From: Vicinamibacteria bacterium
GTDB lineage: Bacteria > Acidobacteriota > Vicinamibacteria > Marinacidobacterales > Marinacidobacteraceae
Length of the DNA: 64,000 bases
Reading direction: 5' to 3'
Assembly (NCBI GenBank): GCA_965215615.1
Contig: OZ244068.1
Location: 1,648,223 to 1,712,222, forward strand
Below the pieces are notes generated by a model, which did no database searches, was not told the origin of the DNA, and saw only the letters and a program-made list of their open reading frames with translations. Positions 3,230 through 47,944 of the stretch are shown piece by piece. How positions within the stretch are numbered: position 1 is the first letter of the stretch; every line of letters starts with the position of its first letter. A program made the translations under genes and the position numbers.

Positions 3230-3234
3230 AAACA

Positions 3235-10620: not shown

Positions 10621-10651
10621 CGGCTGGCGAACGTGGCCCTTCCGGGGCGAA

Positions 10652-11119
10652 TCAGCCCGGACGGATCGTGAGAAGGCGATCTCCGAACTGGACCGGCGAT
10701 CCGTCCTCGCAGGCGATCCCGACCACCTCGCCCGCGCATTCGGCGACGATGTTGTTCATCAGCTTCATGGCTTCGATGATGCAGAGCACCTGGCCTTCCT
10801 CGACCCGGTCTCCGGGCGCGACGAACGGGTCCGCATCGGGGCGGGGGCGCCGGTAGAAGGTGCCCACCATCGGTGCCTCGACGACGACGAGCCCGGCATC
10901 CTGATCCGATTCCGGAGGAGCGGGGGCGGGATCTGCGGGACTTCCCGAAGCGAGCGGAGGCGCGGATGCGGGGCCGAACACCGCCGCGGGAGCGCTCCGG
11001 GAGACCCGGACCCGGGCATCCCCGAGGCGGATTTCCACCTCGTGGAAACCACTCTCGCCAAGGCGCTCGACCGCTTCGAGCAGTTCGGGGAGAGTGGGAC
11101 CGGAAGGAGACGGGGACAC
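10652..11119 (-). CDS. accB: biotin carboxyl carrier protein
   Basis: Biotinyl motif 'EAMKLMN'; proline/alanine linker; immediately upstream of accC. Confidence 0.9.
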   Translation of the reverse strand: MSPSPSGPTLPELLEAVERLGESGFHEVEIRLGDARVRVSRSAPAAVFGPASAPPLASGSPADPAPAPPESDQDAGLVVVEAPMVGTFYRRPRPDADPFVAPGDRVEEGQVLCIIEAMKLMNNIVAECAGEVVGIACEDGSPVQFGDRLLTIRPG

Positions 11120-12928: not shown

Positions 12929-13323
12929 GGCGGAGCGCCCTCTTCGGCGGGGAGCGCGAGGGGAATCTGCAGCTCGTTTTCGGGGTCCGACCGAAGCACG
13001 AAAAAGACCCCTTCCCGATCGACCCCGGAAACGATGCCGTCCATCAGGGAATCACCAGGGCGTGCGACGAACCCGTCCCCACGGGGGGATTCGAGCACCG
13101 CCAGCCCGTCCCTCGGGATATCCCCGCGGACCAGCACTCCCCGGACACGGATCTCCGAAATCAGCCAGCCGGCGAGACCCGCCGGGCGCTCGGCATCGAT
13201 CGGAGCCGGCGGCGGCCGGAAGGGATCCCGTCCTTCCTCCCGTCTTTCCTGGGCGATTCCCGGAGAAGCCATGAGCAAGGCTGCTCCGGGGATCGAGGTG
13301 ACGATCCACCGGAAAACCATCAC
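12925..13323 (-). CDS. pilP: pilus assembly lipoprotein PilP-like
   Basis: Small signal-peptide protein in the pilO-pilQ position, translationally coupled (4-nt overlaps). Confidence 0.55.
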   Translation of the reverse strand: MMVFRWIVTSIPGAALLMASPGIAQERREEGRDPFRPPPAPIDAERPAGLAGWLISEIRVRGVLVRGDIPRDGLAVLESPRGDGFVARPGDSLMDGIVSGVDREGVFFVLRSDPENELQIPLALPAEEGAPP

Positions 13324-13901
13324 CGCCCCTCGTCAGCAGGTTCGGGCATAACCGATTCCGGGCCGATCACCACCGCGACGAATCGCCCGGAAAGCGCTCC
13401 GCCGGGCTCCGCGGGGGCCGAGAGCTCGAAGTCATCGATCACGATCGCCTTGCCGAACCCGGCGACTCTCTCGAAGAACCGAACGAAATCGAAGTAGTTG
13501 CCCTCCGCTTCCACCGCGGCCGAACGAGCCGTGAAGGGCCCCATCGAGAACGCCGGTTCCGGGGCGAACCGGCGCATGCGGAGGCCTTCCTCGGTGGCGG
13601 CGGCCGCCAGCGAATCCAGCAGATCCTGCGCTTGTTGGCCGGCGCTCAGAACCCCGCGAAGGATCTCGACCTGACGTGCCTGGCGGTCGAGGTCGGCGCG
13701 CGCCACTTCGGCCACCTTCCGATCTCCGTCGCCCCCGCTCGCTTCCGCCGAGCGCAGGTCGTCACCAAGCCGGGCCACCCGGCTCTCTTCCGCGAGAAGC
13801 GCCGCCTGCTTCGCGGGTCGCACGAAAAGGCGGAAGCCGAACTGAATCCCGAGCGCGATGACCAGAAAAGGGAGGATCCACCGCAGGGTGGACGCGGTCA
13901 T
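13320..13901 (-). CDS. pilO: type IV pilus assembly protein PilO
   Basis: 193-aa protein with one N-terminal TM helix then a coiled coil; ATG at 13899-13901; the track ORF is a 5' extension. Confidence 0.65.
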   Translation of the reverse strand: MTASTLRWILPFLVIALGIQFGFRLFVRPAKQAALLAEESRVARLGDDLRSAEASGGDGDRKVAEVARADLDRQARQVEILRGVLSAGQQAQDLLDSLAAAATEEGLRMRRFAPEPAFSMGPFTARSAAVEAEGNYFDFVRFFERVAGFGKAIVIDDFELSAPAEPGGALSGRFVAVVIGPESVMPEPADEGR

Positions 13902-14578
13902 GACCCCTCCCCGTCGCCGCCGAGCGCCGCGATCAGGGCGACGAGCGGTTCGGGTTCGCGCGAGTTGAACCGGAGCGCACCCGCGAGCGAGAAGCGGTGA
14001 TCCCCCAACATCGTGGCCCGAACGTCTCCTCCCCCTCCGCGTTCGACGTACTGGAGAGTCAACGTCCGGACCCGATCCATCCCGGCGAACCGCTCCGCGG
14101 CGCTCCGGGCCGCACCGGTGGACCCGGTCCGTCCGGTAATCACGAGCTCGTCTCCCCGGCGGCTCAGGTTCTCGAGAACGACCCCGTCTCCGATTTCGAG
14201 CGCGAGCTCCCGGAGCAGATCGGGGAGCACGTAGCGCTCCTCGTCCCAGCGCTCGAGACGGCCGGACACGATGTGCAGCCGTTCGAGATGTCTTCGATCC
14301 TCCGCAATCTGGCTGGCGAGTCCCTCGAGATCGGCGATCCGCGTCTCGATCTGGCCGGCGACGGCGGATTCGGCCCGATGGCGGGTGTCGAGGCGGCGCG
14401 CGTCGGTGATCGCGACCAGGGTGGAGAGCGCGACGAGCCCGGTGCCAGCGAGAAGCGGCAACGCCGCGCCCCGGACCCTCCATGGACGGGCGGACTTCTG
14501 AAGGAGGCCTTCTTCCGGAAGCAGGTTCAGGCCGCGCCGGGGGCGAGCGATGGCAGACGGGCGGGTTTCGCGTTTCAT
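13898..14578 (-). CDS. pilN: type IV pilus assembly protein PilN
   Basis: 'MKRETRPSAIARPRRGLNLLPEE' PilN-type N-terminus with TM helix; ATG at 14576-14578; overlaps pilM stop by 4 nt. Confidence 0.65.
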   Translation of the reverse strand: MKRETRPSAIARPRRGLNLLPEEGLLQKSARPWRVRGAALPLLAGTGLVALSTLVAITDARRLDTRHRAESAVAGQIETRIADLEGLASQIAEDRRHLERLHIVSGRLERWDEERYVLPDLLRELALEIGDGVVLENLSRRGDELVITGRTGSTGAARSAAERFAGMDRVRTLTLQYVERGGGGDVRATMLGDHRFSLAGALRFNSREPEPLVALIAALGGDGEGS

Positions 14579-15540
14579 GACGAGTCCTCTAGATGGTTCT
14601 TGGCGAGTCCGGCCGCAAATGCGAGCGCCGGATCCCGACGTTCGGAATCGAAAAAGCCGATCGGATCGAGAACGGCTGGCTCTCCACGGGCAAGCGGCCG
14701 GAGCACTTCGTGGATTTCCTTCTGCCCCGCCCCGCCGCCACTCAGACGCACGGAACACGGCGGAGCGAGTCCGGCCTCGGCCAGCGCTTCCGCGAGCGCA
14801 GCAGCGACGCGCTTCCCGAGCGGGGATTCGGAGAAAGCCTCCTCGGAGCCGGTGCCCACGCCCCCACCCGGAGCCTGGACGCTCGCCGCCAGATCGGCCC
14901 AGGGCACCGCATCCCCGCCCGGAGACGGCGATACGAAGCGGAATACGTGGACCGCCGCGTGGGAAGCGCCCACTTCGACGATCGAGATCGGTTGCTCCCC
15001 GACCGCCCGGGAGTCGCCGAGCCGGTTCTCGAGCTCCCAGGCGGCGAGCAGGCCGTACGGTTCGATCTCCACCCGTCGGGGCGCGAGACCGGCTCGCGCG
15101 ACCGCCCGTCCGTGGCTCAGAACCAGATCACGGCGCGCCGCGCCAAAAACGACGCACCTGCCGCCCTCGCCGTTCCACGCCCGACCCCGCTCGAAATCGA
15201 ACAGCAAATCCTGCATGTGAAACGGGATGTGCCGGGCCGCTTCGGCCTCGACCGCCTGCCGCAAGGAGCCTTCCTCCCCGGCGGAGCCTTCCGGCAGGAC
15301 GAGACGCTTGACCAGGTACGCCCTGCCGCCGACTCCCACCGAAGCCGTCCGGCTCCGGACTCCCAACCTGCCGACGAGGCGCTCCAGGGCATCGCCGGCG
15401 GCTTCCCCATCGAGTACCGCGCCTTCCCGCACCACCCCCGAAGGAAGCGGCTCGCTCCCGGCAGCAACCAGGCGGATTTCGGTCCGCTCCCGGGCGAGCG
15501 CCACCAGCTTCACCGAGGACGCACCGAAGTCCACGCCCAC
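14575..15540 (-). CDS. pilM: type IV pilus assembly ATPase-like protein PilM (actin-like)
   Basis: 'GVDFGASSVKLVAL' PilM/FtsA-like N-terminus; start uncertain (GTG at 15538-15540 just below the conserved 80-nt element, or ATG at 15618 inside it). Confidence 0.75.
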   Translation of the reverse strand: MGVDFGASSVKLVALARERTEIRLVAAGSEPLPSGVVREGAVLDGEAAGDALERLVGRLGVRSRTASVGVGGRAYLVKRLVLPEGSAGEEGSLRQAVEAEAARHIPFHMQDLLFDFERGRAWNGEGGRCVVFGAARRDLVLSHGRAVARAGLAPRRVEIEPYGLLAAWELENRLGDSRAVGEQPISIVEVGASHAAVHVFRFVSPSPGGDAVPWADLAASVQAPGGGVGTGSEEAFSESPLGKRVAAALAEALAEAGLAPPCSVRLSGGGAGQKEIHEVLRPLARGEPAVLDPIGFFDSERRDPALAFAAGLAKNHLEDSS

Positions 15541-15562
15541 CCCGAACTCGGGGCGGGACCAA

Positions 15563-15641
15563 CTGATTCGATCGGGGAACACACTTACATTGACGCAACA
15601 GCGCCCTTTTTGTCCCACCTGGGGTCCAAAATGTGGAAAAC
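15563..15641 (-). repeat. conserved ~80-nt intergenic element, copy A (inverted relative to copy B at 47215..47294)
   Basis: Reverse complement 'gttttccacattttggaccccaggtgggacaaaaagggcgctgttgcgtcaatgtaagtgtgttccccgatcgaatcag' matches 47215..47294 at ~90% identity; both copies follow a '...ATVRW' stop. Confidence 0.8.
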
Positions 15642-15660
15642 TTCTACCCCGCCCGCGCCC

Positions 15661-15985
15661 TCACCAGCGTACGGTGGCCTCGATCCCGAAGATGTGCACA
15701 CCGGGGCCAGGGGCTCCCCCTCGCGGCGGGCCGAACGCGAGGTCGGACGCCATCGGCGGACTCTGACAACTGTGTTTCTGCCCGCTACCTGCCTCAATGC
15801 GATGTCCACCGCCGAGATCACGTAGCCTTCGCGATTGGCCCCGGTGGTGCATTTCGTCGCAATTTCAGCGGGAGTACCGAGCCTTCCGTTTTCCTCTCAC
15901 CAGCGTCGTCTGCGCTTCGGCACCGGGAGCGAGGCCGAGCAGCAGCGGCAGGAAGAGAGGCACACGAAGAGAGGCACACAAAAAC
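15661..15985 (-). pseudogene. degraded paralog of the giant autotransporter-like gene (signal-peptide end fused to C-terminal beta-barrel tail)
   Basis: Minus strand encodes '...LAPGAEAQTT' (17/18-nt match to 'gccgaagcgcagacgac' at the signal-peptide end of 34409..47212). In another frame it encodes '...ASDLAFG...GVHIFGIEATVRW*', ~80% nt identity to the last ~100 nt of the giant gene; broken frames; the ~12-kb interior is missing. Confidence 0.55.
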
Positions 15986-16148
15986 GGGCGCGCCACCACG
16001 CGCGAGACGCGGGAACAACGCCTCAACCCGCCCGTTGTTGTTTCGTTGTTGGTTGGAGGGGGGCTGCACGATGTCCTGCCACCTCGTCGTTCCGGGCGAT
16101 AACGCAACCCGCAGTCATTTCGGCTGGCTTTCCGCCGTATTTCCCCTG

Positions 16149-16177
16149 TTGACCGTCGGGAGAGCCACGCCTATACT
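16149..16177 (+). promoter_or_regulatory. sigma70-type promoter candidate for rplM-rpsI
   Basis: TTGACC (16149-16154), 17-nt spacer, TATACT (16172-16177), ~100 nt upstream of the rplM ATG. Confidence 0.45.
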
Positions 16178-21418: not shown

Positions 21419-21605
21419 TTAACAGGCTGTGGATAAACTGGCGTGAGCACCGAGACGGGTGAGGCGCCCGGCTGACAAGGCGCGTGAATGAGCAATAGCA
21501 GCGCTATTTCGAGCGAATCGCAACGAAGAGCGAGCCTCCAGGCGAGCGTTCAGACGGGATGCATCGCTCGTCGAATGCCGCGTTAGTTTTTCCACAGCCT
21601 GTTAA
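21419..21605. repeat. 187-bp element bounded by 20-bp terminal inverted repeats (ttaacaggctgtggataaac ... gtttttccacagcctgttaa); MITE-like or large regulatory palindrome
   Basis: Arms at 21419-21438 and 21586-21605 match 19/20 as reverse complements; each arm carries a TTAA tetranucleotide at its outer edge; lies in the divergent intergenic region. Confidence 0.5.
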
Positions 21606-21640
21606 CCTAGTCAGGTATCAACCCCTTGGAGGCGTTTTTC

Positions 21641-33808: not shown

Positions 33809-34138
33809 ATGCCCGAAGCTCCTCGCGGGAAGTTCGGTCGCGTGCACCAGCTCGTCCGCCGGATTCCGGCCGGCCGGGTCACGAGCTACGGCCGCCTGGC
33901 CCGCGCGGTCAGCGCCGAAGGACACCCGCTTTCAGCGCGGGAGGCCGGCTGGGCCATGCGGAACTGCCCCGACGGGGTGCCCTGGCACCGGGTGGTGAAC
34001 GCGGCGGGCGAGCTCTCGGCAGAGGCGCGGGGCGGCTGTCCGCAGGGCCTTCAGCGAGCCCTCCTCGAACGCGAACGGGTTTTGTTCGATTCTCGCGGGA
34101 AAGTCCGGATGGATCTCCACCTCTGGGAGCCCGCCTGA
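33809..34138 (+). CDS. atl: alkyltransferase-like protein (MGMT DNA-binding domain without the catalytic Cys; PWHRV)
   Basis: 'TSYGRLA' and 'PWHRVVNAAG' where MGMT has PCHRV; 109 aa. Confidence 0.7.
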   Translation: MPEAPRGKFGRVHQLVRRIPAGRVTSYGRLARAVSAEGHPLSAREAGWAMRNCPDGVPWHRVVNAAGELSAEARGGCPQGLQRALLERERVLFDSRGKVRMDLHLWEPA

Positions 34139-34408: not shown

Positions 34409-37400
34409 ATGCGCGGTGTAAGGGGCTGGTTTCGTGGGCGGGTAGCCCTGTCATGCAGGAGTCTCCGGGGCGTTCTCGCCGCCGCGCTGCTGTTCGGCAT
34501 CGCCACCGCCGCCGAAGCGCAGACGACCGTCACTTTCGTAAGCAATCTGAATAGCGAAGGCGGAACCGACAATGCTAATACATTTAGAGATCGCCTAGCG
34601 CAATCCTTCACCACGGGTGCCAGCAGTGGCGGCTATCTCCTGTCGTCCGTCGAGATCTACCTCGGTAGAAATGCCTATGTAGGGGGCACCCCTGTGGTCG
34701 TCATCCGTGCGGACAGCAGTGGCGACCCCGGTGATGTCGTAGTCACCCTGACCAATCCGGGAAGCTATCCCGGAAGGCAAGATAGAGATGGGGGCACTGC
34801 CATCTTCACCGCCCCAGCGGGCACGACGCTCGCCGCGAGCACCACCTACTGGGTGGTCATCAACGACGAAGATCGAAGTCTTTTCTGGGCGAGCGCCTAC
34901 AGCAAAAACCACACGACGACGGGACTGCCCGGCTGGAGCATGGGTGGTACAAAGATACGTCGACAGGGTGCTACTAATTGGGCAACTTTTGACGACCTAC
35001 TACCGATGGAACTCAGCGGCACGGTGGTCACTGCCAGCGGCCCCGACGCCCCCGCGAACCTGCAGGCGGTGGTGAGCAGCGGCCAGGTGGAGTTGACATG
35101 GGATGACCCGTCGGACGACACGATCACGAAGTACCAGTACCAGCAGCGGACGCCTCCCAGCACCGGCACCTGGGGAGAGTGGACGGACATTTCGAACAGC
35201 GACGAGGACACCACCGATCACACGGTGACGGGGTTGACGAACGGCACGGAGTACGAGTTCGGGGTGCGTGCAGTGGCGGGGAGCACGAACGGCACGGCGG
35301 CCACGGTGAGCGCGACGCCCGTCGCCCCACCGGCAGCGCCGACGAGCCTGACGGCCAGGGCGGGTGCCACCCAGGTCACGCTGAGCTGGACCGACCCGGG
35401 CAACGCCACGATCACGAAGTACCAGGTGCGTTACGGCGCGGGCCTGACCACCGATTCGGGCTTCAGTTGGGGGACGTGGGCAGACGTTTCGAGCAGCAGC
35501 GCGACCACCACGAGCGCCACGGTGACCGGGCTGACGAACGGCACGGAATACACCTTCGGGGTCCGCGCCGTCGGCCTTTCGGGGGATGGCGCGGAGGCGA
35601 CGGTGTCGGCGACGCCTTTGGCCTCGGGCGCCCCGGCCAAGCCGACGGGCCTGACGGCGACAGCGGGCGGTAGCAGCGTCACCCTGAGCTGGACCGCCCC
35701 GAGCGGCACGATCACGAAGTACCAGGTCCGTCAGGGGACGGGCGATCCGGTCATGTGGGGGGCGTGGGCGGACATCACGGGCACCACGAGCCACACGGTG
35801 ACGGGCCTGACGAACGGCACGGAATACAGCTTTCAGGTGCGCGCGGTGGCGAACACGGTGCTGGGTGCGATGTCGGACACGGCGTCCGCGACGCCGAACG
35901 CCCCGCCGGCGGCGCCCGCCGGCTTGAAGGCCGAGGCGTACCCCGCCGAGATCAGACTGGAGTGGACCGAGCAGACCGACGACACCATCACCGGGTACCA
36001 GTATCAGACCCGCGCCAGAAGCGAAGGCGACTGGGGCGACTGGAGCGGCTGGAGCAATGTGCCCCTCGGCGAAGTCGGCGAGGATGACAAGGTCTTCAGC
36101 TTTTCGGGCAAGAGCTATTACAAGGTGGCCGACCTGACCAACGGCACCGAGTACGGCGTCCGGATCCGGGCGGTGGCCGGAACGGTGCCCGGCGCGGCGT
36201 CGGCCATCGTGACCGGGACTCCGAACGTCCGGCCGCTCGCGCCCACGGGCCTGAGCGCCACGGCGGGCGACGGGCAGGTCAGCCTGACGTGGGACGATCC
36301 CTCGAACGCCGCGATCACCAAATACCAGGTGACTTACGAGGTGGTCGCCACGAGCGTGCCCGCGACGGAGGACGTCCCGGTCAACGGCGCCACCACCAGC
36401 CACACCGTGACGGGCCTGGTGAACGGCACCCTGTACAGCTTCGAACTCGTCCCCTTCGCCGGCACGGTGTCGGGCCCGTCTTCGGGCAAGGTGCGGGCGA
36501 CCCCGACGGCCCCGGCGGGCCTGACGCTGACGCAGCCGGACGACAGGCAGGTGGACGAGGGCGACACCGCGGACACGGCAACCTTCACGGTCGCGCTGAG
36601 GAGCTTGCCGGCCGCGGACGTGATGGTGACGGTGACCGCCCCCGCCGGGCTGGAACTCGACGGCCCGGATGCCGGCGGCGTGTTTGCTTCCAGCGAGGAC
36701 CTCGCCTTCACCACCGCGAACTGGAACAGCGCGCAGACGGTGACGGTGCGCGCCACCGACGACAGCACGGACAGCCCGAGCGGGCGGGAAGAGGTCATCG
36801 CCTGGTCCGCGACCTCGACGGACACCGACTACAGCGGCCTGAAAGGCGATGCGGCCACCGTCACGGTGGTGGACAACGACCCGACGACGGTGACGCTCGC
36901 GGGCGCCGCCGGGGATGTGACCGAGGGCGGGACGAAGGACTTCACCGTCACCCTGGGGCGCGGCCTGGTGAGCGGCGAGAGGCTGGTGGTGCCGCTGACC
37001 TTCGGCACCGGCACCGGCACCGCGACGCGGAACACGGACTACACGGTGGCGTGCCCCTCGCCGCTGCCGGACGGGGCCGGAGTGGTCTGCGCGAACCTGA
37101 ACACCGGAAACGCGGCGTTGACCTTCGCCGGTCCGAGCATGGGGGAGACGTTGAAGGAGGTGACGCTGACGCTGAGTGCGGCGAGCGACAACACGACCGA
37201 AACGGGCGGCGAGACGGTGATCATCGGCCTCGGCACGCTGAACGCGAGTTCGGGGACCGGTCTGGAGGGCGGGGCGAGCGGCACCGACAGCCTGGCGGAC
37301 TTCAAGATCACCGACCCGGACGCGAGTGTGCCGACGGTTGCGATCACCGGGATCCCGGCGAAGATCAACAACACGAACGCGCTGACGGCGACCTTCACCT

Positions 37401-40400
37401 TCTCGGAGGCGGTGACGGGCTTCGAGAAGGCCGACATCACGGTGACGGGCGGCACGGCGGGCACGTTCTCGGCGACGAGCACGACGGTCTATACGCTCGG
37501 GATCACTCCCGACGGCGATGCGAACGTGGTGGTGACGGTGGCGGCGAACAGCGCGACCGACGGCACGAACATGGGCCCGGCGAGCGCGGAGAGTGCGACG
37601 GCCGTGTGGGACGAGACGGCGCCGACGGTCGAGATCACCGGGGTACCCGGCAAGATCAGCAACCGCGATGCGTTCACCGTGACCTTCAGCTTCTCGGAGA
37701 CGGTGACGGGCTTCGACACGGACGATGTCAGCGTCACGAACGGCGACAAGAGCGCGTTCTCGGGCAGCGGCAGCAGCTATACGGTGGTGGTGACCCCGAA
37801 TGCCGACGCGGACGTGACGGTGACGGTGGCCGCGGGCGGCGCAACCGACGGGTTGAACACCGGCCCGGCGAACGCGGTGAGCGCGACGGCCACCTGGGAT
37901 GCGAGCGTGCCGACGGTCGAGATCAGCGGGGTACCGAAGAGGATCACGACCCGCGCCGCGTTCACGGTGACGTTCACCTTCTCGGAGTCGGTGACGGATT
38001 TCGTGACCGGCGATGTCACGGTCACGAACGGCGACAAGAGCTCGTTCACGGGCAGCGGCAGCAGCTATACGGTGGTGGTGACCCCGAATGCCGACGCGGA
38101 CGTGACGGTGACGGTGGATGCGAACTCGGCGACGGACGGCACGAACACCGGCCCGACGGCCGATGTGGTCGCGACCGCGGTGTTCGGCGCGCCGGCGGCG
38201 CCGACCGTGACGGCGACGGCGGGGAACGGTCAGGTCACTCTGAGCTGGACCGACCCGTCCGACGACACGATCACTGAGTACGAGTATCAGCAGCGGGAGG
38301 AGGGCGGCACCTGGCCGAACAGCTGGACGGACATCGCGAACAGCGCGAGTCTCACCGAGTACGCGGTCACCAGCCTGACGAACGGGACGACCTACGAGTT
38401 CCGGGTCCGCGCCGTGTCCGGGACGGTGACCAGCCCGGCCTCGAGCGTCGTGACCGCGACGCCTCTCGCGGCGACCGCCCCCGGCCCGCCGCGGGACCTG
38501 AGGGTCGCGCCGGGCGACGGGCAGGTCGTTCTGAATTGGCGTGTCCCCGGAACCAACGCCGACGCGATCACGAAGTACGAGTTCCGCCAGGGAACGGGCG
38601 ACCCCCTCGCCTGGGGTGCGTGGGGGGACGCCTCCGGCACCACCACGAGCCACACGGTGACGGGCCTGACGAACGGCACGGAATACAGCTTTCAGGTGCG
38701 CGCGGTGGCGAACACGGTGCTGGGTGCGATGTCGGACACCGTGGAAGCGACTCCCAACCCGGTACCGGCCGCCCCGACGAACTTCACGGCCACGAAGGGG
38801 ACAGCCAGCGGCGCTATCGCCCTGAGCTGGACCGCCCCGAGCGGCACGATCACCAGGTATGAATACCGGCTCCGCCCTGTCGGTGGTGACTGGCCACAAA
38901 GCTGGACCCGCTTGACTGTCCTCGTCACCAGCTTCACGGTGGGGAGCCAGACGGACGGCACGGAGTACGAGATCGAACTCCGCGCCGTCAACGATTCGGG
39001 CGCGGGTGCCGCCGCCAGCGCGACCGCGACCCCGTTGGACCCGACCGCCGCGGCGGCGCCGACGAGCTTCACGGCGACGGCGGGGAGCGGTCAGGTCGCT
39101 CTGGCATGGACGGCCCCGAGCGGCACGATCACGAAGTACCAGGTGCGGCAGGGGACGGGCGATCCGGTCGTGTGGGGGGCGTGGGCGGACATCACGGGCA
39201 CCACGAGCCACACGGTGACGAGTCTGACGAACGGCACGGAATACAGCTTCCAGGTGCGTGCGGTGACCGGGACTTCGGTGCTGGGTGCGATGTCGGCGAC
39301 CGCGACGGCGACGCCGACGGCCGCGCCGGGGGTGACGATCTCGGTGACGGACGCGTCGGTGAGCGAGGCCGACCAGACGGACACGGCGACCTTCACGGTG
39401 GTGCTGAACACGGAGCCGTCGTCGGGGCTGGTGGTCGTGAGCGTGGATGCAAGCGGAGCCCCCGGGCTGGAGCTCGACGGCCCGGACGCCCCCACTGCGT
39501 TCAGCAACGCCGAGGTCCTGACGTTCACCACCACGAACTGGAACAGCCCGCGGACGATCAGGGTGCGCGCCACTTCCGAGGCCACGGACAACCCGAGCGG
39601 CCGGGAGGAGACGATCACCTGGACCGCGACTGCGACCGCGGATACCGACTACCAGAACCTGACCGGGGATGCGGCGACGGTCACGGTGGTGGACAACGAC
39701 CCGACGACGGTGACGCTCGCGGGCGCGGCGGGGGATGTGGCCGAGGGGGCGACGAAGACCTTCACGGTGACCCTGGGCCGGGGTCTGGTGGACGGCGAGA
39801 CGCTCGGGGTGCCGCTGGCCTTCACCGGTACCGCGACGCGGGGCACGGACTACATGACGGCGTGCCCGACGACACTTCCGACCGGGGTGACCTGTAACGA
39901 CCTCGACGACACGAGCCTGACCCCGACGGTGACCTTCACGGGGCCGACCTCGGGGGCGACGGCGCGGACGGTGACGCTGACGCTGAGTGCGGCGAGCGAC
40001 AACACGACCGAAACGGGCGGCGAGACGGTGATCATCGGCTTCGGCACGCTGACGGCCACCGGTCTGGAGGGTGGCACGAGCACCACCGACAGCCTGGCGG
40101 ACTTCAAGATCACGGACCCGGACGCGAGTGTGCCGACGGTTGCGATCACCGGGATCCCGGCGAAGATCAACAACACGAATGCGCTGACGGCGACCTTCAC
40201 CTTCTCGGAGGCGGTGACGGGCTTCGAGAAGGCCGACATCGCGGTGACGGGCGGCACGGCGGGCACGTTCTCGGCGACGAGCACGACGGTCTATACGCTC
40301 GGGATCACTCCCGACGGCGACGCGAACGTGGTGGTGACGGTGGCGGCGAACAGCGCGACCGACGGCACGAACATGGGCCCGGCGAGCGCGGAGAGTGCGA

Positions 40401-43400
40401 CGGCCGTGTGGGACGAGACGGCACCGACGGTGGAGATCACCGGGGTACCCGGCAAGATCAGCAACCGCGATGCGTTCACCGCGACCTTCAGCTTCTCGGA
40501 GACGGTGACGGGCTTCGACACGGACGATGTCAGCGTCACGAACGGCGACAAGAGCGCGTTCTCGGGCAGCGGCAGCAGCTATACGGTGGTGGTGACCCCG
40601 AATGCCGACGCGGACGTGACGGTGACGGTGGCCGCGGGCGGCGCAACCGACGGGTTGAACACCGGCCCGGCGAACGCGGTGAGCGCGACGGCCGTGTGGG
40701 ACGAGACGGCGCCGACGGTGGATATCACCGGGATACCGGCGAAGATCAACAACACGAATGCGCTGACGGCGACCTTCACCTTCTCGGAGTCGGTGACGGG
40801 CTTCGCGAAGAGCGACATCACGGTGACGGGCGGCACGGCGGGGGCGTTCGGGGGCAGCGGCACCACCTATACGCTCGCGATCACCCCGACGAGCGGTTCG
40901 AACGTGGTGGTGACGGTGGCTGCGAACAGCGCGACCGACGGCACGAACATGGGCCCGGCGAGCGCGGAGACGGCGACGGCCACCTGGGATGCGAGCGTGC
41001 CGACGGTCGGGATCACCGGGGTGCCGGCGCGGATCAGCGGCACGAGCGACCTGACGGCGACGTTCACCTTCTCGGAGGATGTCACGGGCTTCGTGAAGAA
41101 CGACATCACGGTGACGGGCGGCACGGCGGGCACGTTCACGGAGAGCAGTTCCACGGTCTATACGCTCGTGATCACCCCCGACGGCGACGCGAACGTGGTG
41201 GTGACGGTGACGGCGGACAGCGCGACCGACGGGTTGAACATGGGCCCGGCGAGCGCGGAGACGGCGACGGCGGTGTGGACCGCCCTGGTCTTCAACCCGG
41301 CGGCGGTGACCGTGGTCGAGGAGGCGAGCGCGACCTACACGGTGGAACTCTCGAGCCAGCCCGATGGGAACGTCACGGTGACGGTCTCGGGGGCGAGCGG
41401 GGAGGTGACGTTCGACACCGACTCCACGACGCCGGGCACCCAGACGACGGCGCTGACCTTCACGACGACCACCTGGGACGATGCGCAGACGGTGACGGTG
41501 TTGGCGGCGGCCGACGGCGACACGGCGAACGACAGCGCGACGCTGACGCACACCGCGTCGGGCGGCGGGTACGGCTCGGTGACCGGGGATGTGGAGGTGA
41601 CGGTGACCGACAACGACACGCCGGGTCTCGTCCTCGATCCGACGAGCCTGACGGTGGCGGAGGGCGGCAGCGGCACCTACACGGTGGCGCTCGCGACCCA
41701 GCCGACGGCGAGCGTGACGGTGACGGTCGCGGGGGCGAGCGGCGAGGTGACGTTCGACACCGACGGCGACACGGGCGGCAACCAGAACACGCTGACCTTC
41801 ACGACGAGCGACTGGGGCACGGCGCAGACGGTGACGGTGTCGGCGGGTCAGGACAACGATGCCGACGACGACAGCGCGACGCTGACGCACAGCGCGTCGG
41901 GTGGCGGCTACGGCTCGGTGACCGGGAACGTGGCGGTGACGGTGACCGACGACGACACGGCGAGCGTGGTCACGACAGAACCCGACGCGACGGCGACCGA
42001 GGGCAGCACCACGGACGAGGCGACCTTCACGGTGGCGCTGAACACCCGGCCGTCGAGCGATGTCACGGTGACGGTGACCGCGCCGACGGGTCTGACGCTC
42101 GACGGCCCGGACAGCGCCACCACGTTCACGAGCAGCGAGGGCCTCACCTTCACCAGCACGAACTGGAGCACGGCGCAGACGGTGACGGTGCGCGCGACCG
42201 ACGACAACGATGACAGCCCGATCGGTCGGGAACTGACGGTCACCTACGCCGTGACTTCGTCGGACAGTGGCTACAGCGGCCTGAGCGGGGATGCGGCGAC
42301 GGTCACGGTGGTGGACGACGACCCGACGACGGTGACGCTCGCGGGCACTGCCGGGGATGTCGTGGAGGGCGGGACGAAGACCTTCACGGTCACGCTGGAG
42401 CGCGGCCTCGTGAACGGCGAGACGTTGCCGGTGCCGCTGACCTTCGGCGGGGACGCGACGCGGGGCACGGACTACACGACGGCGTGTCCCACGACACTGC
42501 CGACGGGGGTGACCTGCGCGAACCTCGACTCGGGGACCCCGACGGTGACCTTCACGGGGCCGAGCACGGGGGCGACGGCGACGACGGTGACGCTGACCTT
42601 GACGGCGACGACGGACAACACCGCGGAGGCGGGCGGCGAGTCGGTGGTCATCGGCCTCGGCACGCTGAACGCGAGTTCGGGGACCGGTCTCGGGGGCGGC
42701 GCGAGCGGCACCGACAGCCTGGCGGACTTCGACATCACCGACCCGGACGCGAGCGCGCCGACGCTCGAGATCAGCGGGGTACCGAAGAGGATCACGACCC
42801 GCGCCGCGTTCACGGTGACGTTCACCTTCTCGGAGTCGGTGACGGACTTCGTCACCGGCGATGTCACGGTCACGAACGGCGACAAGAGCTCGTTCACGGG
42901 CAGCGGCAGCAGCTATACGGTGGTGGTGACCCCGAATGCCGACGCGGACGTGACGGTGACGGTGGATGCGGACTCGGCGACGGACGGCACGAACACCGGC
43001 CCGCCGGCCGATGTGGTCGCGACCGCGGTGTTCGGCGCGCCGGCGGCGCCGGCCAGTCTCTCCGCCACGGCGGGCAACGCCGCGGTCACCTTGAGCTGGA
43101 CCGACCCGATGGACGACACGATCACCGGGTACGAGTTCCGTCAGGGTGTCCAGAGTTCGCCCGTCACCTGGGGCAGCTGGACGCCCATCACGAACAGCGA
43201 CAAGGACACCACCTCCCACACGGTGACGGGTTTGACCGACGGCACGGAGTACTACTTCCAGGTCCGCGCGGTGTCCGATGCGGTGATGGGCGAGCCCTCG
43301 GCCGAGGAGAACCGGGACGCGGTGGTAACACCGGTGGCGGTGAACGCGCCGGCGGCGCCGACGGGCCTCGGGGCGACGGCGGGCAACGGCCAGGTGGCCT

Positions 43401-46400
43401 TGAGCTGGACGGCCTCGAGCAGCAACGGCATCACGAAGCACCAGGTGCGCAGCGGATCGGGCGATCCGCTCGTCTGGGGGAGTTGGACGGACATCGCGAA
43501 CAGCGCCAGTATCACGAGCCACACGGTGACGGGGCTGACGAACGGGACGGAGTACAGCTTCCAGGTGCGCGCGGTGGCGACGGCGGTGCTGGGTGTGACG
43601 TCGGACACGGCGGTCGCGACCCCGAGGGGTGCCGCGGGCGTGACGACGACGCAGCCGAGCGACCGGCAAGTGACCGAGGGTGACACTTCGGACACGGCGA
43701 CCTTCACGGTGGAACTCGACACCCAGCCGTCGAGCGATGTCACGCTGACGGTCGAGGCTGTCGCCGGGCTGGAACTCGACGGCCCGGACGGCGCCACCGC
43801 GTTCACGGCGAGCGAGGCGCTGACCTTCACGAGCAGCAACTGGGGCACGGCGCAGACGGTGACGGTGCGCGCCACGGACGACAGTGTTGACAGGCCCAGC
43901 GGGGGCGATCTGACCGTGAGCTACTCGATAGCATCGTCGGACAGTGGCTACAACTTGCTCTTCGGTGTGGCCGCCCTCGTCACCGTCATCGACAACGACC
44001 CGACCGCGGTGACCCTTGCGGGGGCCGCCGGGGACATCACCGAGGGCGAGACGAAGGACTTCACCGTCACGCTGGGCGTGCGCGGTCTGGTGAGCGGCGA
44101 GACGCTCGGGGTGCCGCTGACCTTCACCGGTGGCGCGACGCGGGGCACGGACTACACGACGGCGTGTCCCTCGTCGCTGCCGACCGGGGTGACGTGTAAC
44201 GACCTGAACACGGCGGCGACTCCGACCGTGACCTTCACCGGGCCGAGCACGGGGGAGACGGCGCGGACGGTGACGCTGACGCTGAGTGCGGCGACGGACA
44301 ACACGGCCGAGACGGGCGGCGAGACGGTGATGATCGGCCTCGGCACGCTGACGGCTACCGGTCTGGAGGGCGGGGCGAGCGGCACGGGCAGTCTGGCGGA
44401 CTTCCGGATCACCGACCCGTCGGCGACGGACACGACGGTACCGACGCTTTCGATCTCGGGAGTACCGGGGACGATCAGCACGAGGGCGGCGTTCACGGCG
44501 AACTTCACCTTCAGCGAGTCGGTGACGGACTTCGATACGAACGACATCACGGTGACCGGCGGGAGCAAGGGCACGCTCTCGGGCAGCGGGAGGAGCTACC
44601 GGATGCGGATCACGCCGACCGGCGGGGTGAACGTGGTGGTGACGGTGCGTCGAAATGCGGCGACCGACGGCACGAACCGGGGCCCGGCGGCGGCGGTGTC
44701 GCGGACCGCGACCTGGCGTGCCCCGAGTCCGCCGCCGCAGCAGCCGCCAGCGGAGGAAGACGACGACGATCCGCCTTCTTCCGGTGGTGGCGGCGGTGGT
44801 GGGGGTAGTACCCCGTCCCTCCCCTCGGCTTCTCTGTCCGCCGTCTCGGTGAGCGCGGGGCAGATGGTGATCGAGGGCGGCGAGGCGCTGTTCCGGATCA
44901 CCGCGAGTCCGGTGCCGAGCGACGAGATCACGGTGCGGGTGCGGGTGTCGGCGACGGGCGACTTCGTGGACGGGGTGCAGCTCGGCGAGCGGCTCGTCAC
45001 GCTCTCGGCTTCGGCGCCCACGGCGAGTCTGCGGGTAGCCACCATCGATGACCGCCGGAACGAGGCGGACGGGACGGTGACGGTGACGGTGCTTTCGGGC
45101 GAGGACTACCGCCTGTCGCAGGCCTCGGCCTCGCTCGCGGTCACGGACGACGACACGCCCGCGCTGGTCCTGACTCCGGAGACGCTGACGGTGGACGAGG
45201 GCGGCAGCGGGAACTACCGGGTGGCGCTCGCCACCGAACCCGCCGGCGATGTGACGGTGAGCATCGCGGGCACGGGTGAGGTGACGACGGCGCAGAACAC
45301 GCTGACCTTCACCGCGGGGAACTGGAACGTGGCGCAACCGGTGACAGTGTCGGCGGGGCAGGACGCGGATGCGGCGGACGACCGGGCGAGACTGGATCAC
45401 CGCGCGAGCGGCGGCGGCTACGACTCGGTGACCGGCAGCGTGGCGGTGACCGTCATGGACGACGACACGCCGGGCCTGATCCTGACTCCGGCGGCGCTGA
45501 CGCTGGCGGAAGGCGCGAGCGCGAGCTACACGGTGGCACTCGCCACCGAGCCGACGGGGAACGTGACGGTGAGCATCGCGGGCACGGGCGATGTGACGGT
45601 GGACCGGAGCACGCTGAGCTTCACCGCCCGGAACTGGAGCGCGGCGCAGACGGTGACGCTCTTCGCGGCGCGGGACGAGGATGTGGCGAACGACAGCGCG
45701 ACGCTGGCGCACCACGCACGGGGCGGTGACTACTCATCGGTCACCGGCAGCGTGGAGGTGACGGTGACGGATGCGGGCGCGGCGGTGGTGTCGGCGCATC
45801 TGGCACGGTTCGGCCGGACGGTGGCGGAGCAGGCGCTCGACGGGATCGCGGGAAGGCTGCGGGCGCCGCGCACGGCGGGGATGCAGAAGACGCTCGCAGG
45901 TCCCCGCCTGAACGTTCCGCGCGAAGGAGATACGGCGCAGGGCACGATGCACGCCGAGGCGCGGAGGACCGGCTTCGAGAACGAGTACGAGAGCCAAAAC
46001 CGCGACCTGCTGCACCTCCCGAACGCCCGGGAAATGCTGCTCGGGTCGAGCTTCACGCTCACGACCCAGGAGGCGGAGGGAACCGGGGGCAGCTTCGCCT
46101 TCTGGGGCCGGGCGAGCGCGAACCGCTTCGACGGCGCCACGAACGACGGAGCCACGGCGATCGGCCTCGACGGCGAGGTGCTGACGGGTCTCGTGGGCGC
46201 GGACTATGCGCGGGGCGACTGGCTCTTCGGCCTGGCGCTGACCCACAGCCTCTCCGAGGGGGGCTACACCAGCGAAGGTGCCAGCGGCGGCAAGGTGGAT
46301 GCGTCGCTGACGGCGGCGCTGCCGTATGCGTCGATCCAGGCGAACCCGCGGCTGAAGCTCTGGGGTGCGGGCGGCTACGGCATCGGCGAGGTGACGCTCA

Positions 46401-47212
46401 AGACCGGAGGCGAGAGCCACCGGGCGGACACCGACTGGACGATGGCGGCGGCGGGAATACGGGGAGACCTGCTGGATCCGGCGGGCGGGCCGCTCGCGGT
46501 AGCGGTGATCGGCGACGGACTGTGGACGCGGAGCACATCGGATGAGATCGCCGCGCTTTCGACGGCGGATACCTTCGTGACCCGGCTGCGGCTCGGGGTG
46601 GAGGCCAGCTACGACTTCAACTTCGACGGCATGGGCGATCTCACGCCGCGGGTGGAAGCGGGCGCCCGCCACGACGGGGGCGATGCGGAGACCGGGGCCG
46701 GGATGGATCTCGGTGTCGGAATCAACTGGAAGGCACCGGTCTTCGGATTGAGCCTCGATGTCGCGGGACGGATGCTGATCCTCCACGAGAACGAGGACTT
46801 CGCGGACCGGGGGATTTCGGCGGCGGTGGTCTTCGACCCGAACCCGGAGAGCGAGCGGGGGCCGTCGCTTTCGCTGCGCCAGGCGATCGGCGGGAGCGCC
46901 GACGGGGGGATCGAGGCGCTGTTCGCGACGACGACCCCACTCGGCGACGGCGGGAACATCGGGAGCGGAGCGGGAATGCGACGGACGCTTGAGACCGCGT
47001 ACGGCTTCTCCGCCTTCGGGGGGCGCTTCACGGCGAGTCCGCACGCCGAGGTGGACTTCACGGAGCGGGCGCGGGACTACGCGCTCGGCTGGCGGTTCGT
47101 GCCGCACAAGCTGGCATCGGACCTCGCGTTCGGCATCAAGGCCACCCGCCGGGAAGGCGAGACCCTGGCCCCGGTGCACGTCTTCGGGGTCGAGGCCACC
47201 GTGCGCTGGTGA
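34409..47212 (+). CDS. giant (4267 aa) autotransporter-like surface adhesin with FN3, Ig-like and Calx-beta-like repeat arrays and a C-terminal outer-membrane beta-barrel
   Basis: Single 12,804-nt ORF; signal peptide ending AEAQT; >15 FN3-like modules ('TITKYQVR...GTEYSFQVRAV'); Calx-beta-like 'VTVVDNDPTTVTLAG' modules; Ig-like 'PTVAITGIPAKINN...' modules; last ~450 aa autotransporter-type barrel ending 'VEATVRW'. Confidence 0.9.
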   Translation: MRGVRGWFRGRVALSCRSLRGVLAAALLFGIATAAEAQTTVTFVSNLNSEGGTDNANTFRDRLAQSFTTGASSGGYLLSSVEIYLGRNAYVGGTPVVVIRADSSGDPGDVVVTLTNPGSYPGRQDRDGGTAIFTAPAGTTLAASTTYWVVINDEDRSLFWASAYSKNHTTTGLPGWSMGGTKIRRQGATNWATFDDLLPMELSGTVVTASGPDAPANLQAVVSSGQVELTWDDPSDDTITKYQYQQRTPPSTGTWGEWTDISNSDEDTTDHTVTGLTNGTEYEFGVRAVAGSTNGTAATVSATPVAPPAAPTSLTARAGATQVTLSWTDPGNATITKYQVRYGAGLTTDSGFSWGTWADVSSSSATTTSATVTGLTNGTEYTFGVRAVGLSGDGAEATVSATPLASGAPAKPTGLTATAGGSSVTLSWTAPSGTITKYQVRQGTGDPVMWGAWADITGTTSHTVTGLTNGTEYSFQVRAVANTVLGAMSDTASATPNAPPAAPAGLKAEAYPAEIRLEWTEQTDDTITGYQYQTRARSEGDWGDWSGWSNVPLGEVGEDDKVFSFSGKSYYKVADLTNGTEYGVRIRAVAGTVPGAASAIVTGTPNVRPLAPTGLSATAGDGQVSLTWDDPSNAAITKYQVTYEVVATSVPATEDVPVNGATTSHTVTGLVNGTLYSFELVPFAGTVSGPSSGKVRATPTAPAGLTLTQPDDRQVDEGDTADTATFTVALRSLPAADVMVTVTAPAGLELDGPDAGGVFASSEDLAFTTANWNSAQTVTVRATDDSTDSPSGREEVIAWSATSTDTDYSGLKGDAATVTVVDNDPTTVTLAGAAGDVTEGGTKDFTVTLGRGLVSGERLVVPLTFGTGTGTATRNTDYTVACPSPLPDGAGVVCANLNTGNAALTFAGPSMGETLKEVTLTLSAASDNTTETGGETVIIGLGTLNASSGTGLEGGASGTDSLADFKITDPDASVPTVAITGIPAKINNTNALTATFTFSEAVTGFEKADITVTGGTAGTFSATSTTVYTLGITPDGDANVVVTVAANSATDGTNMGPASAESATAVWDETAPTVEITGVPGKISNRDAFTVTFSFSETVTGFDTDDVSVTNGDKSAFSGSGSSYTVVVTPNADADVTVTVAAGGATDGLNTGPANAVSATATWDASVPTVEISGVPKRITTRAAFTVTFTFSESVTDFVTGDVTVTNGDKSSFTGSGSSYTVVVTPNADADVTVTVDANSATDGTNTGPTADVVATAVFGAPAAPTVTATAGNGQVTLSWTDPSDDTITEYEYQQREEGGTWPNSWTDIANSASLTEYAVTSLTNGTTYEFRVRAVSGTVTSPASSVVTATPLAATAPGPPRDLRVAPGDGQVVLNWRVPGTNADAITKYEFRQGTGDPLAWGAWGDASGTTTSHTVTGLTNGTEYSFQVRAVANTVLGAMSDTVEATPNPVPAAPTNFTATKGTASGAIALSWTAPSGTITRYEYRLRPVGGDWPQSWTRLTVLVTSFTVGSQTDGTEYEIELRAVNDSGAGAAASATATPLDPTAAAAPTSFTATAGSGQVALAWTAPSGTITKYQVRQGTGDPVVWGAWADITGTTSHTVTSLTNGTEYSFQVRAVTGTSVLGAMSATATATPTAAPGVTISVTDASVSEADQTDTATFTVVLNTEPSSGLVVVSVDASGAPGLELDGPDAPTAFSNAEVLTFTTTNWNSPRTIRVRATSEATDNPSGREETITWTATATADTDYQNLTGDAATVTVVDNDPTTVTLAGAAGDVAEGATKTFTVTLGRGLVDGETLGVPLAFTGTATRGTDYMTACPTTLPTGVTCNDLDDTSLTPTVTFTGPTSGATARTVTLTLSAASDNTTETGGETVIIGFGTLTATGLEGGTSTTDSLADFKITDPDASVPTVAITGIPAKINNTNALTATFTFSEAVTGFEKADIAVTGGTAGTFSATSTTVYTLGITPDGDANVVVTVAANSATDGTNMGPASAESATAVWDETAPTVEITGVPGKISNRDAFTATFSFSETVTGFDTDDVSVTNGDKSAFSGSGSSYTVVVTPNADADVTVTVAAGGATDGLNTGPANAVSATAVWDETAPTVDITGIPAKINNTNALTATFTFSESVTGFAKSDITVTGGTAGAFGGSGTTYTLAITPTSGSNVVVTVAANSATDGTNMGPASAETATATWDASVPTVGITGVPARISGTSDLTATFTFSEDVTGFVKNDITVTGGTAGTFTESSSTVYTLVITPDGDANVVVTVTADSATDGLNMGPASAETATAVWTALVFNPAAVTVVEEASATYTVELSSQPDGNVTVTVSGASGEVTFDTDSTTPGTQTTALTFTTTTWDDAQTVTVLAAADGDTANDSATLTHTASGGGYGSVTGDVEVTVTDNDTPGLVLDPTSLTVAEGGSGTYTVALATQPTASVTVTVAGASGEVTFDTDGDTGGNQNTLTFTTSDWGTAQTVTVSAGQDNDADDDSATLTHSASGGGYGSVTGNVAVTVTDDDTASVVTTEPDATATEGSTTDEATFTVALNTRPSSDVTVTVTAPTGLTLDGPDSATTFTSSEGLTFTSTNWSTAQTVTVRATDDNDDSPIGRELTVTYAVTSSDSGYSGLSGDAATVTVVDDDPTTVTLAGTAGDVVEGGTKTFTVTLERGLVNGETLPVPLTFGGDATRGTDYTTACPTTLPTGVTCANLDSGTPTVTFTGPSTGATATTVTLTLTATTDNTAEAGGESVVIGLGTLNASSGTGLGGGASGTDSLADFDITDPDASAPTLEISGVPKRITTRAAFTVTFTFSESVTDFVTGDVTVTNGDKSSFTGSGSSYTVVVTPNADADVTVTVDADSATDGTNTGPPADVVATAVFGAPAAPASLSATAGNAAVTLSWTDPMDDTITGYEFRQGVQSSPVTWGSWTPITNSDKDTTSHTVTGLTDGTEYYFQVRAVSDAVMGEPSAEENRDAVVTPVAVNAPAAPTGLGATAGNGQVALSWTASSSNGITKHQVRSGSGDPLVWGSWTDIANSASITSHTVTGLTNGTEYSFQVRAVATAVLGVTSDTAVATPRGAAGVTTTQPSDRQVTEGDTSDTATFTVELDTQPSSDVTLTVEAVAGLELDGPDGATAFTASEALTFTSSNWGTAQTVTVRATDDSVDRPSGGDLTVSYSIASSDSGYNLLFGVAALVTVIDNDPTAVTLAGAAGDITEGETKDFTVTLGVRGLVSGETLGVPLTFTGGATRGTDYTTACPSSLPTGVTCNDLNTAATPTVTFTGPSTGETARTVTLTLSAATDNTAETGGETVMIGLGTLTATGLEGGASGTGSLADFRITDPSATDTTVPTLSISGVPGTISTRAAFTANFTFSESVTDFDTNDITVTGGSKGTLSGSGRSYRMRITPTGGVNVVVTVRRNAATDGTNRGPAAAVSRTATWRAPSPPPQQPPAEEDDDDPPSSGGGGGGGGSTPSLPSASLSAVSVSAGQMVIEGGEALFRITASPVPSDEITVRVRVSATGDFVDGVQLGERLVTLSASAPTASLRVATIDDRRNEADGTVTVTVLSGEDYRLSQASASLAVTDDDTPALVLTPETLTVDEGGSGNYRVALATEPAGDVTVSIAGTGEVTTAQNTLTFTAGNWNVAQPVTVSAGQDADAADDRARLDHRASGGGYDSVTGSVAVTVMDDDTPGLILTPAALTLAEGASASYTVALATEPTGNVTVSIAGTGDVTVDRSTLSFTARNWSAAQTVTLFAARDEDVANDSATLAHHARGGDYSSVTGSVEVTVTDAGAAVVSAHLARFGRTVAEQALDGIAGRLRAPRTAGMQKTLAGPRLNVPREGDTAQGTMHAEARRTGFENEYESQNRDLLHLPNAREMLLGSSFTLTTQEAEGTGGSFAFWGRASANRFDGATNDGATAIGLDGEVLTGLVGADYARGDWLFGLALTHSLSEGGYTSEGASGGKVDASLTAALPYASIQANPRLKLWGAGGYGIGEVTLKTGGESHRADTDWTMAAAGIRGDLLDPAGGPLAVAVIGDGLWTRSTSDEIAALSTADTFVTRLRLGVEASYDFNFDGMGDLTPRVEAGARHDGGDAETGAGMDLGVGINWKAPVFGLSLDVAGRMLILHENEDFADRGISAAVVFDPNPESERGPSLSLRQAIGGSADGGIEALFATTTPLGDGGNIGSGAGMRRTLETAYGFSAFGGRFTASPHAEVDFTERARDYALGWRFVPHKLASDLAFGIKATRREGETLAPVHVFGVEATVRW

Positions 47213-47214
47213 CA

Positions 47215-47294
47215 GTTTTCCACATTCTGGCCCCCAGGCGGGACAAAACGGGCGCTGTTGCGTCAATGTATGTATGTTCCCCGATCGAATCAGG
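47215..47294 (+). repeat. conserved ~80-nt intergenic element, copy B (pairs with 15563..15641)
   Basis: See copy A; sits 2 nt after the giant gene stop. Confidence 0.8.
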
Positions 47295-47347
47295 CGTGAC
47301 GATGCGGGGCAGGTGGATACGGCTACACTGAACCACGGACCCGTTCG

Positions 47348-47944
47348 ATGACCGACGAAAAAATGACCGACGCAGAGCTGAAAGCGCTGGTTGCTGGCCT
47401 GGCCACGGCGCAGGACCGCACCGATGCCCAGATGGCGAAGACCGATGCCAAGATCGACCGGCTGGTGGACCGAATTGCGGAGACCGAGGTCCTGGTGAGG
47501 GAAACCTCCGTCGAAATCAAAGAGCTGTCGAAAATGTACGGCGGTGCCAGCAACAACCTGGGCGCGGCGGTCGAGGAGTTCTTCTACAACAGCCTCAAGG
47601 CCCATCCGGTTCTCGGTGGGGTGCGCTTCGAATCCGTCGAAAGGAACGTCCCGGGCCGCGACGACAAAACCGGCCAGAAGGACGAGTTCGACCTGCTGCT
47701 CGTGAACGGCAGCGAGGTGTTCGTCGTGGAGGTGAAGCACAGGGCGCACAAGGACGACCTGAAGGACCTGCTGGACGAGAAGGCACCGAACTCCCGGCGG
47801 ATGTTCCCGAAGTACGCCGGCCACCGGCACCGGTTCGCTCTCGCCACGTTCCACATCCATGACGAACTGAAGGAGTCGGCTCTGGAGAAGGGGGTGACCG
47901 TGCTGCAGCGCAAGGGCGACGTGATCGAAACCTCCCCGGCCTGA
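47348..47944 (+). CDS. hypothetical protein: N-terminal coiled coil plus C-terminal PD-(D/E)xK-like nuclease fold
   Basis: N-terminus is a heptad-like K/E/D-rich helix; C-terminal 'DEFDLLLVNGSEVFVVEVKHR' fits a D...E-x-K restriction-endonuclease-like core. Confidence 0.5.
   Translation: MTDEKMTDAELKALVAGLATAQDRTDAQMAKTDAKIDRLVDRIAETEVLVRETSVEIKELSKMYGGASNNLGAAVEEFFYNSLKAHPVLGGVRFESVERNVPGRDDKTGQKDEFDLLLVNGSEVFVVEVKHRAHKDDLKDLLDEKAPNSRRMFPKYAGHRHRFALATFHIHDELKESALEKGVTVLQRKGDVIETSPA

Follow-up and report, generated by a model that had tools for sequence, protein, structure and literature searches.

Genes for autotransporters and other surface antigens occur in eroded and split form, as in Rickettsia, with its truncated and fragmented sca genes, and in host-restricted pathogens, with their inactivated autotransporters. 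Relocation of a gene by duplication, with loss of the parental copy and transport of flanking sequence to the new site, is a general mechanism of genome evolution, and silent cassette systems such as pilS of Neisseria serve surface-protein variation. The locus described here is the spacer between rplM and pilM in a member of the Vicinamibacteria, within a window of 64,000 nt (the whole stretch of DNA that was analyzed). It contains the remnant of a giant adhesin gene, an intact relative of which is located 31 kb from it.

As in the erosion of the Rickettsia sca genes, a large surface-protein family is represented by intact, truncated and remnant copies. Unlike in that case, the remnant has kept both extreme ends of the gene after one large internal deletion, and a fragment of pilM accompanies the intact copy, which gives the direction of copying. 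The likeness to relocation by duplication lies in the daughter carrying 80 nt of the parental neighbor and in the degraded state of the parental copy; here, however, confident tracing is limited to the 3′ end, and the 5′ end is mosaic. With pilS of Neisseria the locus shares the presence, elsewhere in the genome, of a partial surface-protein gene that is promoterless or defective. Here, however, there is one such copy, which contains conserved ends rather than variable segments and has frameshifts, and recombination signals were not observed. The silent-cassette model does not fit the remnant.

A further family member was observed in another genome (L007, positions 10001-10900), where a 299-aa gene encodes the signal peptide and N-domain of the family (58% identity) and one Ig-like repeat, after which it breaks off with no barrel. 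It is a second truncated member of the family, at an unrelated locus. The features of the window that are discussed below are collected in Table 1.

Table 1. Coordinates of the remnant, the giant gene and the pilM-derived sequences in the window (L001, sister strain; L002-L004, three more distant relatives).
Feature	Position	Strand	Evidence or remark
pilM, first gene of the pilMNO…secretin cluster	14575..15582	-	Pfam PilM_2, E=1e-27
pilM upstream element (start GTTTTCCACA) and first 20 nt of the pilM CDS	15563..15642	-	conserved before pilM in L001-L004; original of the 80-nt repeat
~17-nt stretch GGGCGCGGGCGGGGTAGA between the remnant stop and the pilM element	15643..15660	-	without counterpart in the intact copy; present in L001
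Last ~33 codons and TGA stop (…ASDLAFG…VHIFGIEATVRW*)	15661..15755	-	blastn, tblastn
Choice-of-anchor R domain fragment	15756..15863	-	tblastn, shuffle test; frame differs from that of the signal peptide
Signal-peptide remnant (…LLLGLAPGAEA/QTT)	15901..15978	-	tblastn, 43-nt DNA match (86%), exact 17-nt core
14-nt tandem duplication (GTGTGCCTCTCTTC x2) in the signal-peptide remnant	15952..15979	-	disrupts the frame; absent from the sister strain (15-nt gap against L001)
Sigma-70-like rplM promoter, TTGACC-17-TATACT	16149..16177	+	motif GGGAGTATAGG conserved in relatives; far edge of the inserted remnant
MGMT-like DNA-binding gene, other neighbor of the giant gene	33809-34138		
Giant gene, 4267 aa: signal peptide, choice-of-anchor R, Fn3 and Ig-like repeats, C-terminal outer-membrane beta-barrel (predicted)	34409..47212	+	domain searches, AlphaFold, Foldseek
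Derived copy of the pilM upstream element and pilM codons 1-7 (ATG 47274)	47214..47293	+	93% over 80 nt to 15563-15642
25-codon ORF opening with the first 7 codons of pilM	47274..47351	+	TGA overlaps the ATG of the NERD-like gene (ATGA)
NERD-like gene	47348-47944	+	Pfam NERD, E=3.2e-5

The remnant between rplM and pilM

Three pieces of the spacer, all on the minus strand, match the giant gene: (i) 15901-15978 encodes a sequence ending in CASLRVPLFLPLLLGLAPGAEAQTTL, corresponding to residues 16-41 of the giant protein (15/26 identical, tblastn), (ii) 15756-15863, read in another frame, encodes IATKCTTGANREGYVISAVDIALRQVAGRNTVVRVR, which tblastn aligned with residues 63-100 (LAQSFTTGASSGGYLLSSVEIYLGRNAYVGGTPVVVIR) of the N-terminal choice-of-anchor R domain, and (iii) 15661-15753 encodes MASDLAFGPPRGGAPGPGVHIFGIEATVRW followed by a stop codon, corresponding to residues 4235-4267 (19/33 identical, tblastn, E=4e-7). 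At the DNA level, the signal-peptide piece aligns over 15905-15947 with 34485-34527 (37/43 identical, 86%, E=9.5e-8), and the core of this alignment, GCCGAAGCGCAGACGAC, is exact at all 17 positions and found at two sites only in the window, against 0.05 expected. The DNA of the N-domain fragment gave a local alignment with 34608-34657 at z=4.6, a score reached by none of 300 shuffles. For the third piece, 15563-15752 matched 47112-47293 (blastn, E=1e-38); the coding part of this match comprises 82 identities in 92 aligned bases, with 13 gap columns, and the similarity continues past the stop codon for another 80 nt, 74 of which are identical (93%).

The pieces follow one another in the order of the intact gene (16-41, 63-100, 4235-4267). 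The remnant, of about 420 nt (15661 to ~16000, the 80-nt pilM element excluded), contains residues ~16-100 of the adhesin, including ~38 residues of the choice-of-anchor R domain, and then residues ~4235-4267. The junction of the deletion, between the C-terminal piece and the N-domain fragment, lies at about 15753-15765, where the sequence is too decayed for microhomology to be called. No significant similarity was detected in the sequence upstream of the two signal peptides: a local alignment of 15948-16160 with the 5′ UTR of the giant gene, which includes a poly-C tract, was no better than those of shuffled sequences, and the left boundary of the copied segment was not found.

The preliminary description of this region had reported the signal-peptide and C-terminal matches, and both were recovered by blastn and tblastn where it had placed them, far beyond chance. 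The figures changed: the 17 of 18 nt given for the signal-peptide region proved to be an exact 17/17, the C-terminal match was reproduced and extends beyond the 30 residues claimed, to ~33 residues and 80 nt past the stop, and the N-domain match (residues 63-100) was added, which makes the estimate of about 300 nt for the surviving sequence too low. The proposed loss of ~12 kb of interior holds as far as an internal deletion is concerned, but its size was overstated, the length of the parental gene being an assumption.

The reading frame of the remnant is broken several times. Its pieces lie in frames 3, 1 and 3, the C-terminal piece differs from the intact gene by an 11-nt deletion and a 2-nt insertion, stops occur after QTTLVRGKRKARYSR, and the signal-peptide piece is interrupted by a short tandem duplication (Table 1). 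The ORFs that can still be drawn in the region encode 63 aa (15661-15852) and 80 aa (15865-16107), with another of 78 aa; their GC3 of 0.65-0.70, compared with 0.78-0.91 in most genes of this genome, lacks the coding signature seen there, and none of the three has a Pfam match. Neither the Rfam scan nor the tRNA scan gave a match anywhere in the window.

The closest genome compared, that of a sister strain ~97% identical overall, has the remnant too, joined at the same junction, with no gene called between rplM and pilM. Near the end of the L001 locus, no protein of the sister strain was identical to a protein of the window. In the 5′ part of the remnant the two strains differ by indels of 36 nt, 15 nt and 1 nt, the last of which breaks the 80-aa ORF; these indels suggest decay. 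The 3′ part has 2 differences in ~340 nt. Across the region as a whole, a tract of ~99.5% identity between the strains extends over 3.2 kb (12.7-15.95 kb), covers the whole pil operon and ends inside the remnant, with flanks at ~97%, and this tract (12700-15950) suggests recent recombination between the strains. Since the identity of the 3′ part belongs to this tract, it reflects the region rather than the remnant in particular, and is uninformative about selection.

The preliminary interpretation as a degraded paralog in opposite orientation that has lost its interior is borne out by the ordered matches, the broken frames and the absence of such sequence from the spacers of three relatives (see below). 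On this evidence, the region from 15661 to ~16000 is an internally deleted pseudogene of the same adhesin family as the gene at 34409-47212, and the remnant itself is probably functionless.

The intact giant gene

The choice-of-anchor R domain of the giant protein spans residues 45-205, which score 97.9 bits with NCBIfam NF041539 (cutoff 30; E=5.6e-28). Its last 336 aa have hundreds of homologs with ~50% identity, mostly proteins of 300-570 aa from marine MAGs. Most homologs of the barrel (46202-47209) stand alone, and they are common in sponge-type MAGs and distributed over several phyla. A short protein joining a choice-of-anchor R domain to a barrel was considered as the parent of the remnant and rejected, as none of 10 short barrel homologs (488-574 aa) contained such a domain.

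Like a type Va autotransporter, the giant protein starts with a signal peptide, continues with a long repetitive passenger and closes with a C-terminal barrel whose last residue is aromatic; some homologs of the barrel are named autotransporter beta-barrel proteins, and five of the 10 tested pass TIGR01414. Unlike such proteins, the giant C-terminus itself stays below PF03797 and TIGR01414, matching just OMP_b-brl at 17.9 bits, below the cutoff of that family. In the AlphaFold model (pLDDT 77), the last 336 aa form an all-beta barrel with ~16 strands, where a classical autotransporter has 12, and neither a linker helix nor any other helix is present. Foldseek searches with this model returned generic outer-membrane barrels only (TM ≤0.48), and a sequence profile search of the C-domain against solved structures gave nothing relevant. 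The predicted structure supports the assignment of the C-terminus as an outer-membrane beta-barrel, and does not support a classical 12-strand autotransporter barrel.

The 5′ end of the giant gene has an atypical composition. Its N-domain codons (34409-35053) have a GC3 of 0.67 vs 0.91 for the whole gene, and the GC content is 62.5% in 34001-35000 vs ~70% in the subsequent intervals of the gene, which points to a 5′ end that is mosaic or was exchanged recently. The comparison with the remnant gives a similar contrast: the 5′ pieces are identical to the intact gene at 70 of 92 positions (76%) and the 3′ pieces at 156 of 172 (91%; Fisher p=0.003). As the 5′ identity is far lower than the 3′ identity, the two adhesin genes are not simple recent twins from end to end. 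To judge from these alignments, they are mosaic relatives, and copying from the pilM locus is demonstrable for the 3′ end only.

Several observations concern the immediate surroundings of the gene. An uninterrupted run of 21 C residues (34383-34403) lies 5 nt before its ATG (34409), at the place expected for the ribosome-binding site, and is a candidate tract for phase variation by slipped-strand mispairing, or else a place prone to assembly error. The inverted sequences TGTGGAAAAA (34144-34153) and GTTTTCCACA (47215-47224), which surround the gene, were considered as transposon-like terminal inverted repeats and rejected: TGTGGAAAAA belongs to a separate intergenic repeat motif, also present at 21570-21606, and so is not evidence of a mobile element. 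This motif, GAATGCCGCGTYAG…TTTTTCCACAGCCTGTYA, was found at 21570-21606 (plus strand) and 34135-34175 (minus strand); its core, TTTTCCACA, is common to the start of the pilM upstream element, and GTTTTCCACA with up to one mismatch occurs five times in contrast to 1.3 expected. A role in regulator binding or as a promoter is possible for this motif.

Elsewhere in the window, a restriction endonuclease of the GmrSD type (Pfam GmrSD_N and GmrSD_C) is encoded by a low-GC (54%) island at 3147-5192. The sister strain lacks a counterpart of 3329-5155 and has just a GmrSD_N fragment of 54 aa. A 261-nt tandem duplication (54891-55151 and 55186-55446, 91% identity) overlaps a gene for a Phd/YefM antitoxin (55188-55478). 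At 56174-63196, a low-GC (55%) ORF of 501 aa with no Pfam match lies beside a gene for a 1563-aa helicase-nuclease (DUF4011/AAA_11/AAA_12/MTES_1575), and this segment may be a defense island.

The pilM upstream element and its copy

By its PilM homologs, the organism falls among MAGs of Vicinamibacteria and ‘Candidatus Marinacidobacterium’ (Acidobacteriota). Three of the relatives compared are complete genomes (PilM identity 63, 57 and 55%) and have the same arrangement as here, frr-pyrH-tsf-rpsB-rpsI-rplM followed by pilMNO-secretin. The rplM-pilM spacer measures 330, 227 and 254 nt in these genomes, respectively, against 739 nt here and 689 nt in the sister strain, and the three shorter spacers contain no similarity to the adhesin. 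Because the remnant is absent from the spacers of the relatives, the insertion is specific to this lineage. No adhesin similarity was detected within 10 kb of pilM in any of 30 species-level relatives; the second, intact adhesin gene that relatives had been suggested to retain in the spacer was found in none of them.

The sequence shared by the two loci past the adhesin stop codon consists of the region preceding pilM and the start of its coding sequence. In all four genomes compared, GTTTTCCACA…ATGTTCCCCGATCGAATC stands before pilM and runs into its first codons, and the element has the form GTTTTCCACA…GACAAAA…CTG.TGCGT…(A/G)TGTTC…GATCG.ATC in the relatives. The final 20 nt of the element encode the true N-terminus of PilM, which a protein alignment shows to be conserved as MF(P/S/Q)DRI(S/G)W. 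The start codon of pilM is GTG 15582, and an ORF from GTG 15618, as in the annotation of the sister strain (347 aa), is 12 codons too long. In the flank of the giant gene the homology begins 2 nt past the stop codon and ends inside pilM codon 7.

All six differences between the two copies fall in columns that vary among pilM loci, while none of the 38 invariant columns differ (p=0.026), and at each of the six positions the base of the flank copy is also found in the pilM locus of some relative. The 80 nt, including pilM codons 1-7, are present in relatives that have no adhesin there, which shows that the element is native to pilM and that the copy in the flank of the giant gene, at 47214-47293, is the derived one. 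The preliminary description had the opposite direction, with the pilM promoter rebuilt from the 3′ flank of the adhesin; the presence of the element before pilM in relatives without the adhesin reverses it.

The 25-codon ORF downstream of the giant gene looks like a coupled leader made by the pilM fragment, and what would be a spare pilM promoter and start codon now stand before the NERD-like gene and might drive its expression. At the pilM locus, we infer that the remnant has moved the divergent promoters of rplM and pilM ~450 nt further apart.

History of the two adhesin loci

Taken together, these results give a high probability to the reading that the spacer holds the dead remnant of an adhesin gene that once lay between the rplM promoter and pilM, and the 3′ end of which was copied elsewhere. 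It belongs to this reading, with the same high probability, that the lost gene read into pilM and that the intact gene, at least in its 3′ end, came from the pilM-adjacent adhesin gene. The following course of events is proposed: (i) an adhesin gene would have inserted between the rplM promoter and the pilM leader in the lineage of this species, (ii) at least its 3′ part, together with 60 nt of the leader and 20 nt of the CDS of pilM, would have been copied in inverted orientation from this genome or from a close relative ~7% diverged, and landed between the MGMT-like and NERD-like genes, and (iii) the pilM-adjacent copy would have lost its interior by a deletion joining ~codon 100 to ~codon 4235, and would have decayed since then through small indels. 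A simple inversion was also considered and rejected; it cannot explain the pattern, because it would duplicate nothing and because the rplM side is in the ancestral orientation.

The 80 nt that directly follow the stop codon in both copies would, taken alone, look like the 3′ flank of an adhesin gene, as if the gene at 34409-47212 were the original and a second copy had landed by pilM and decayed, with the pilM promoter rebuilt from that flank. We regard this as very improbable, since the element and pilM codons 1-7 occupy the same position in three relatives without an adhesin there. It is equally hard to credit that the spacer has been kept for small functional proteins (the 63-aa product of 15661-15852 and the 80-aa product of 15865-16107) or for a selected regulatory element. 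The 99.4% identity of 15563-15950 between the two strains would fit such a role, but belongs to the pil-operon tract as a whole; furthermore, a frameshift interrupts the 80-aa ORF of the sister strain, neither Pfam nor Rfam gave a match, there is no coding GC3 signature, and the region is absent from the relatives. Inverted repeats of 190 nt and ~90% identity do exist in the window (15563-15752 and 47112-47293), and could be taken for a switch that inverts the 31.5 kb between them or for a silent donor cassette of adhesin ends, and the poly-C21 tract before the adhesin start also suggests phase variation, but by another route. Such an inversion would swap just the last ~30 codons, the two strains are collinear at the left repeat, no recombinase domain was found in the neighboring genes, and the single remnant is without the variable interior typical of donor cassettes, all of which leaves this explanation with almost no probability.

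A variant of the favored history, in which the giant gene was imported, is unlikely but carries distinctly more weight than these three alternatives; it overlaps with the history proposed above, and its probability is not to be added to that of the latter. The giant gene, with its 80-nt pilM tag, would have come from a relative, at strain or species level, in which the adhesin gene still adjoins pilM and would have entered at a non-homologous site, the local remnant being the recipient’s own, separately decayed copy. The divergence of the tag (6/80, 7%) against 0-3% between the two strains speaks for such an origin, as do the mosaic 5′ and 3′ identities and the atypical GC3 of the N-domain. 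Protein searches with the N- and C-domains of the giant protein found nothing above 58% identity in a database that includes the proteins of the sister genome, that is, no close ortholog. As no better match was found although the sister proteins were included, the sister strain may lack the intact gene, and in that case import from a relative fits better than an old intragenomic duplication. On the other side, no integrase, transposase or terminal repeats flank the giant gene, and no donor genome emerged: exact 21-mer scans for the pilM element gave no match in collections of species-representative genomes and JGI metagenomes.

It is improbable that the copied pilM promoter is active, so that the NERD-like nuclease gene would have come under type IV pilus regulation, and that the repeats in addition allow a 31.5-kb inversion flipping the ribosomal-protein cluster. 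If true, promoter capture during the relocation of a 13-kb adhesin gene would tie a nuclease gene to the regulation of type IV pili.

For annotation, the start of pilM is corrected to GTG 15582 in place of 15618, and the rplM-pilM spacer holds no gene; beyond these corrections no general view is changed. Under the favored history, with the remnant as the trace of the parental adhesin gene, the pilM fragment behind the giant gene would be a hitchhiking tag that shows the source locus, a direction rarely readable from a single genome. The locus would thus provide a clean case of giant surface-protein turnover in an uncultured lineage of Vicinamibacteria (Acidobacteriota), which is probably associated with marine invertebrates. 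Gain, relocation and decay of large adhesin genes are to be expected, and the event would be ordinary gene turnover with an unusually clear direction.
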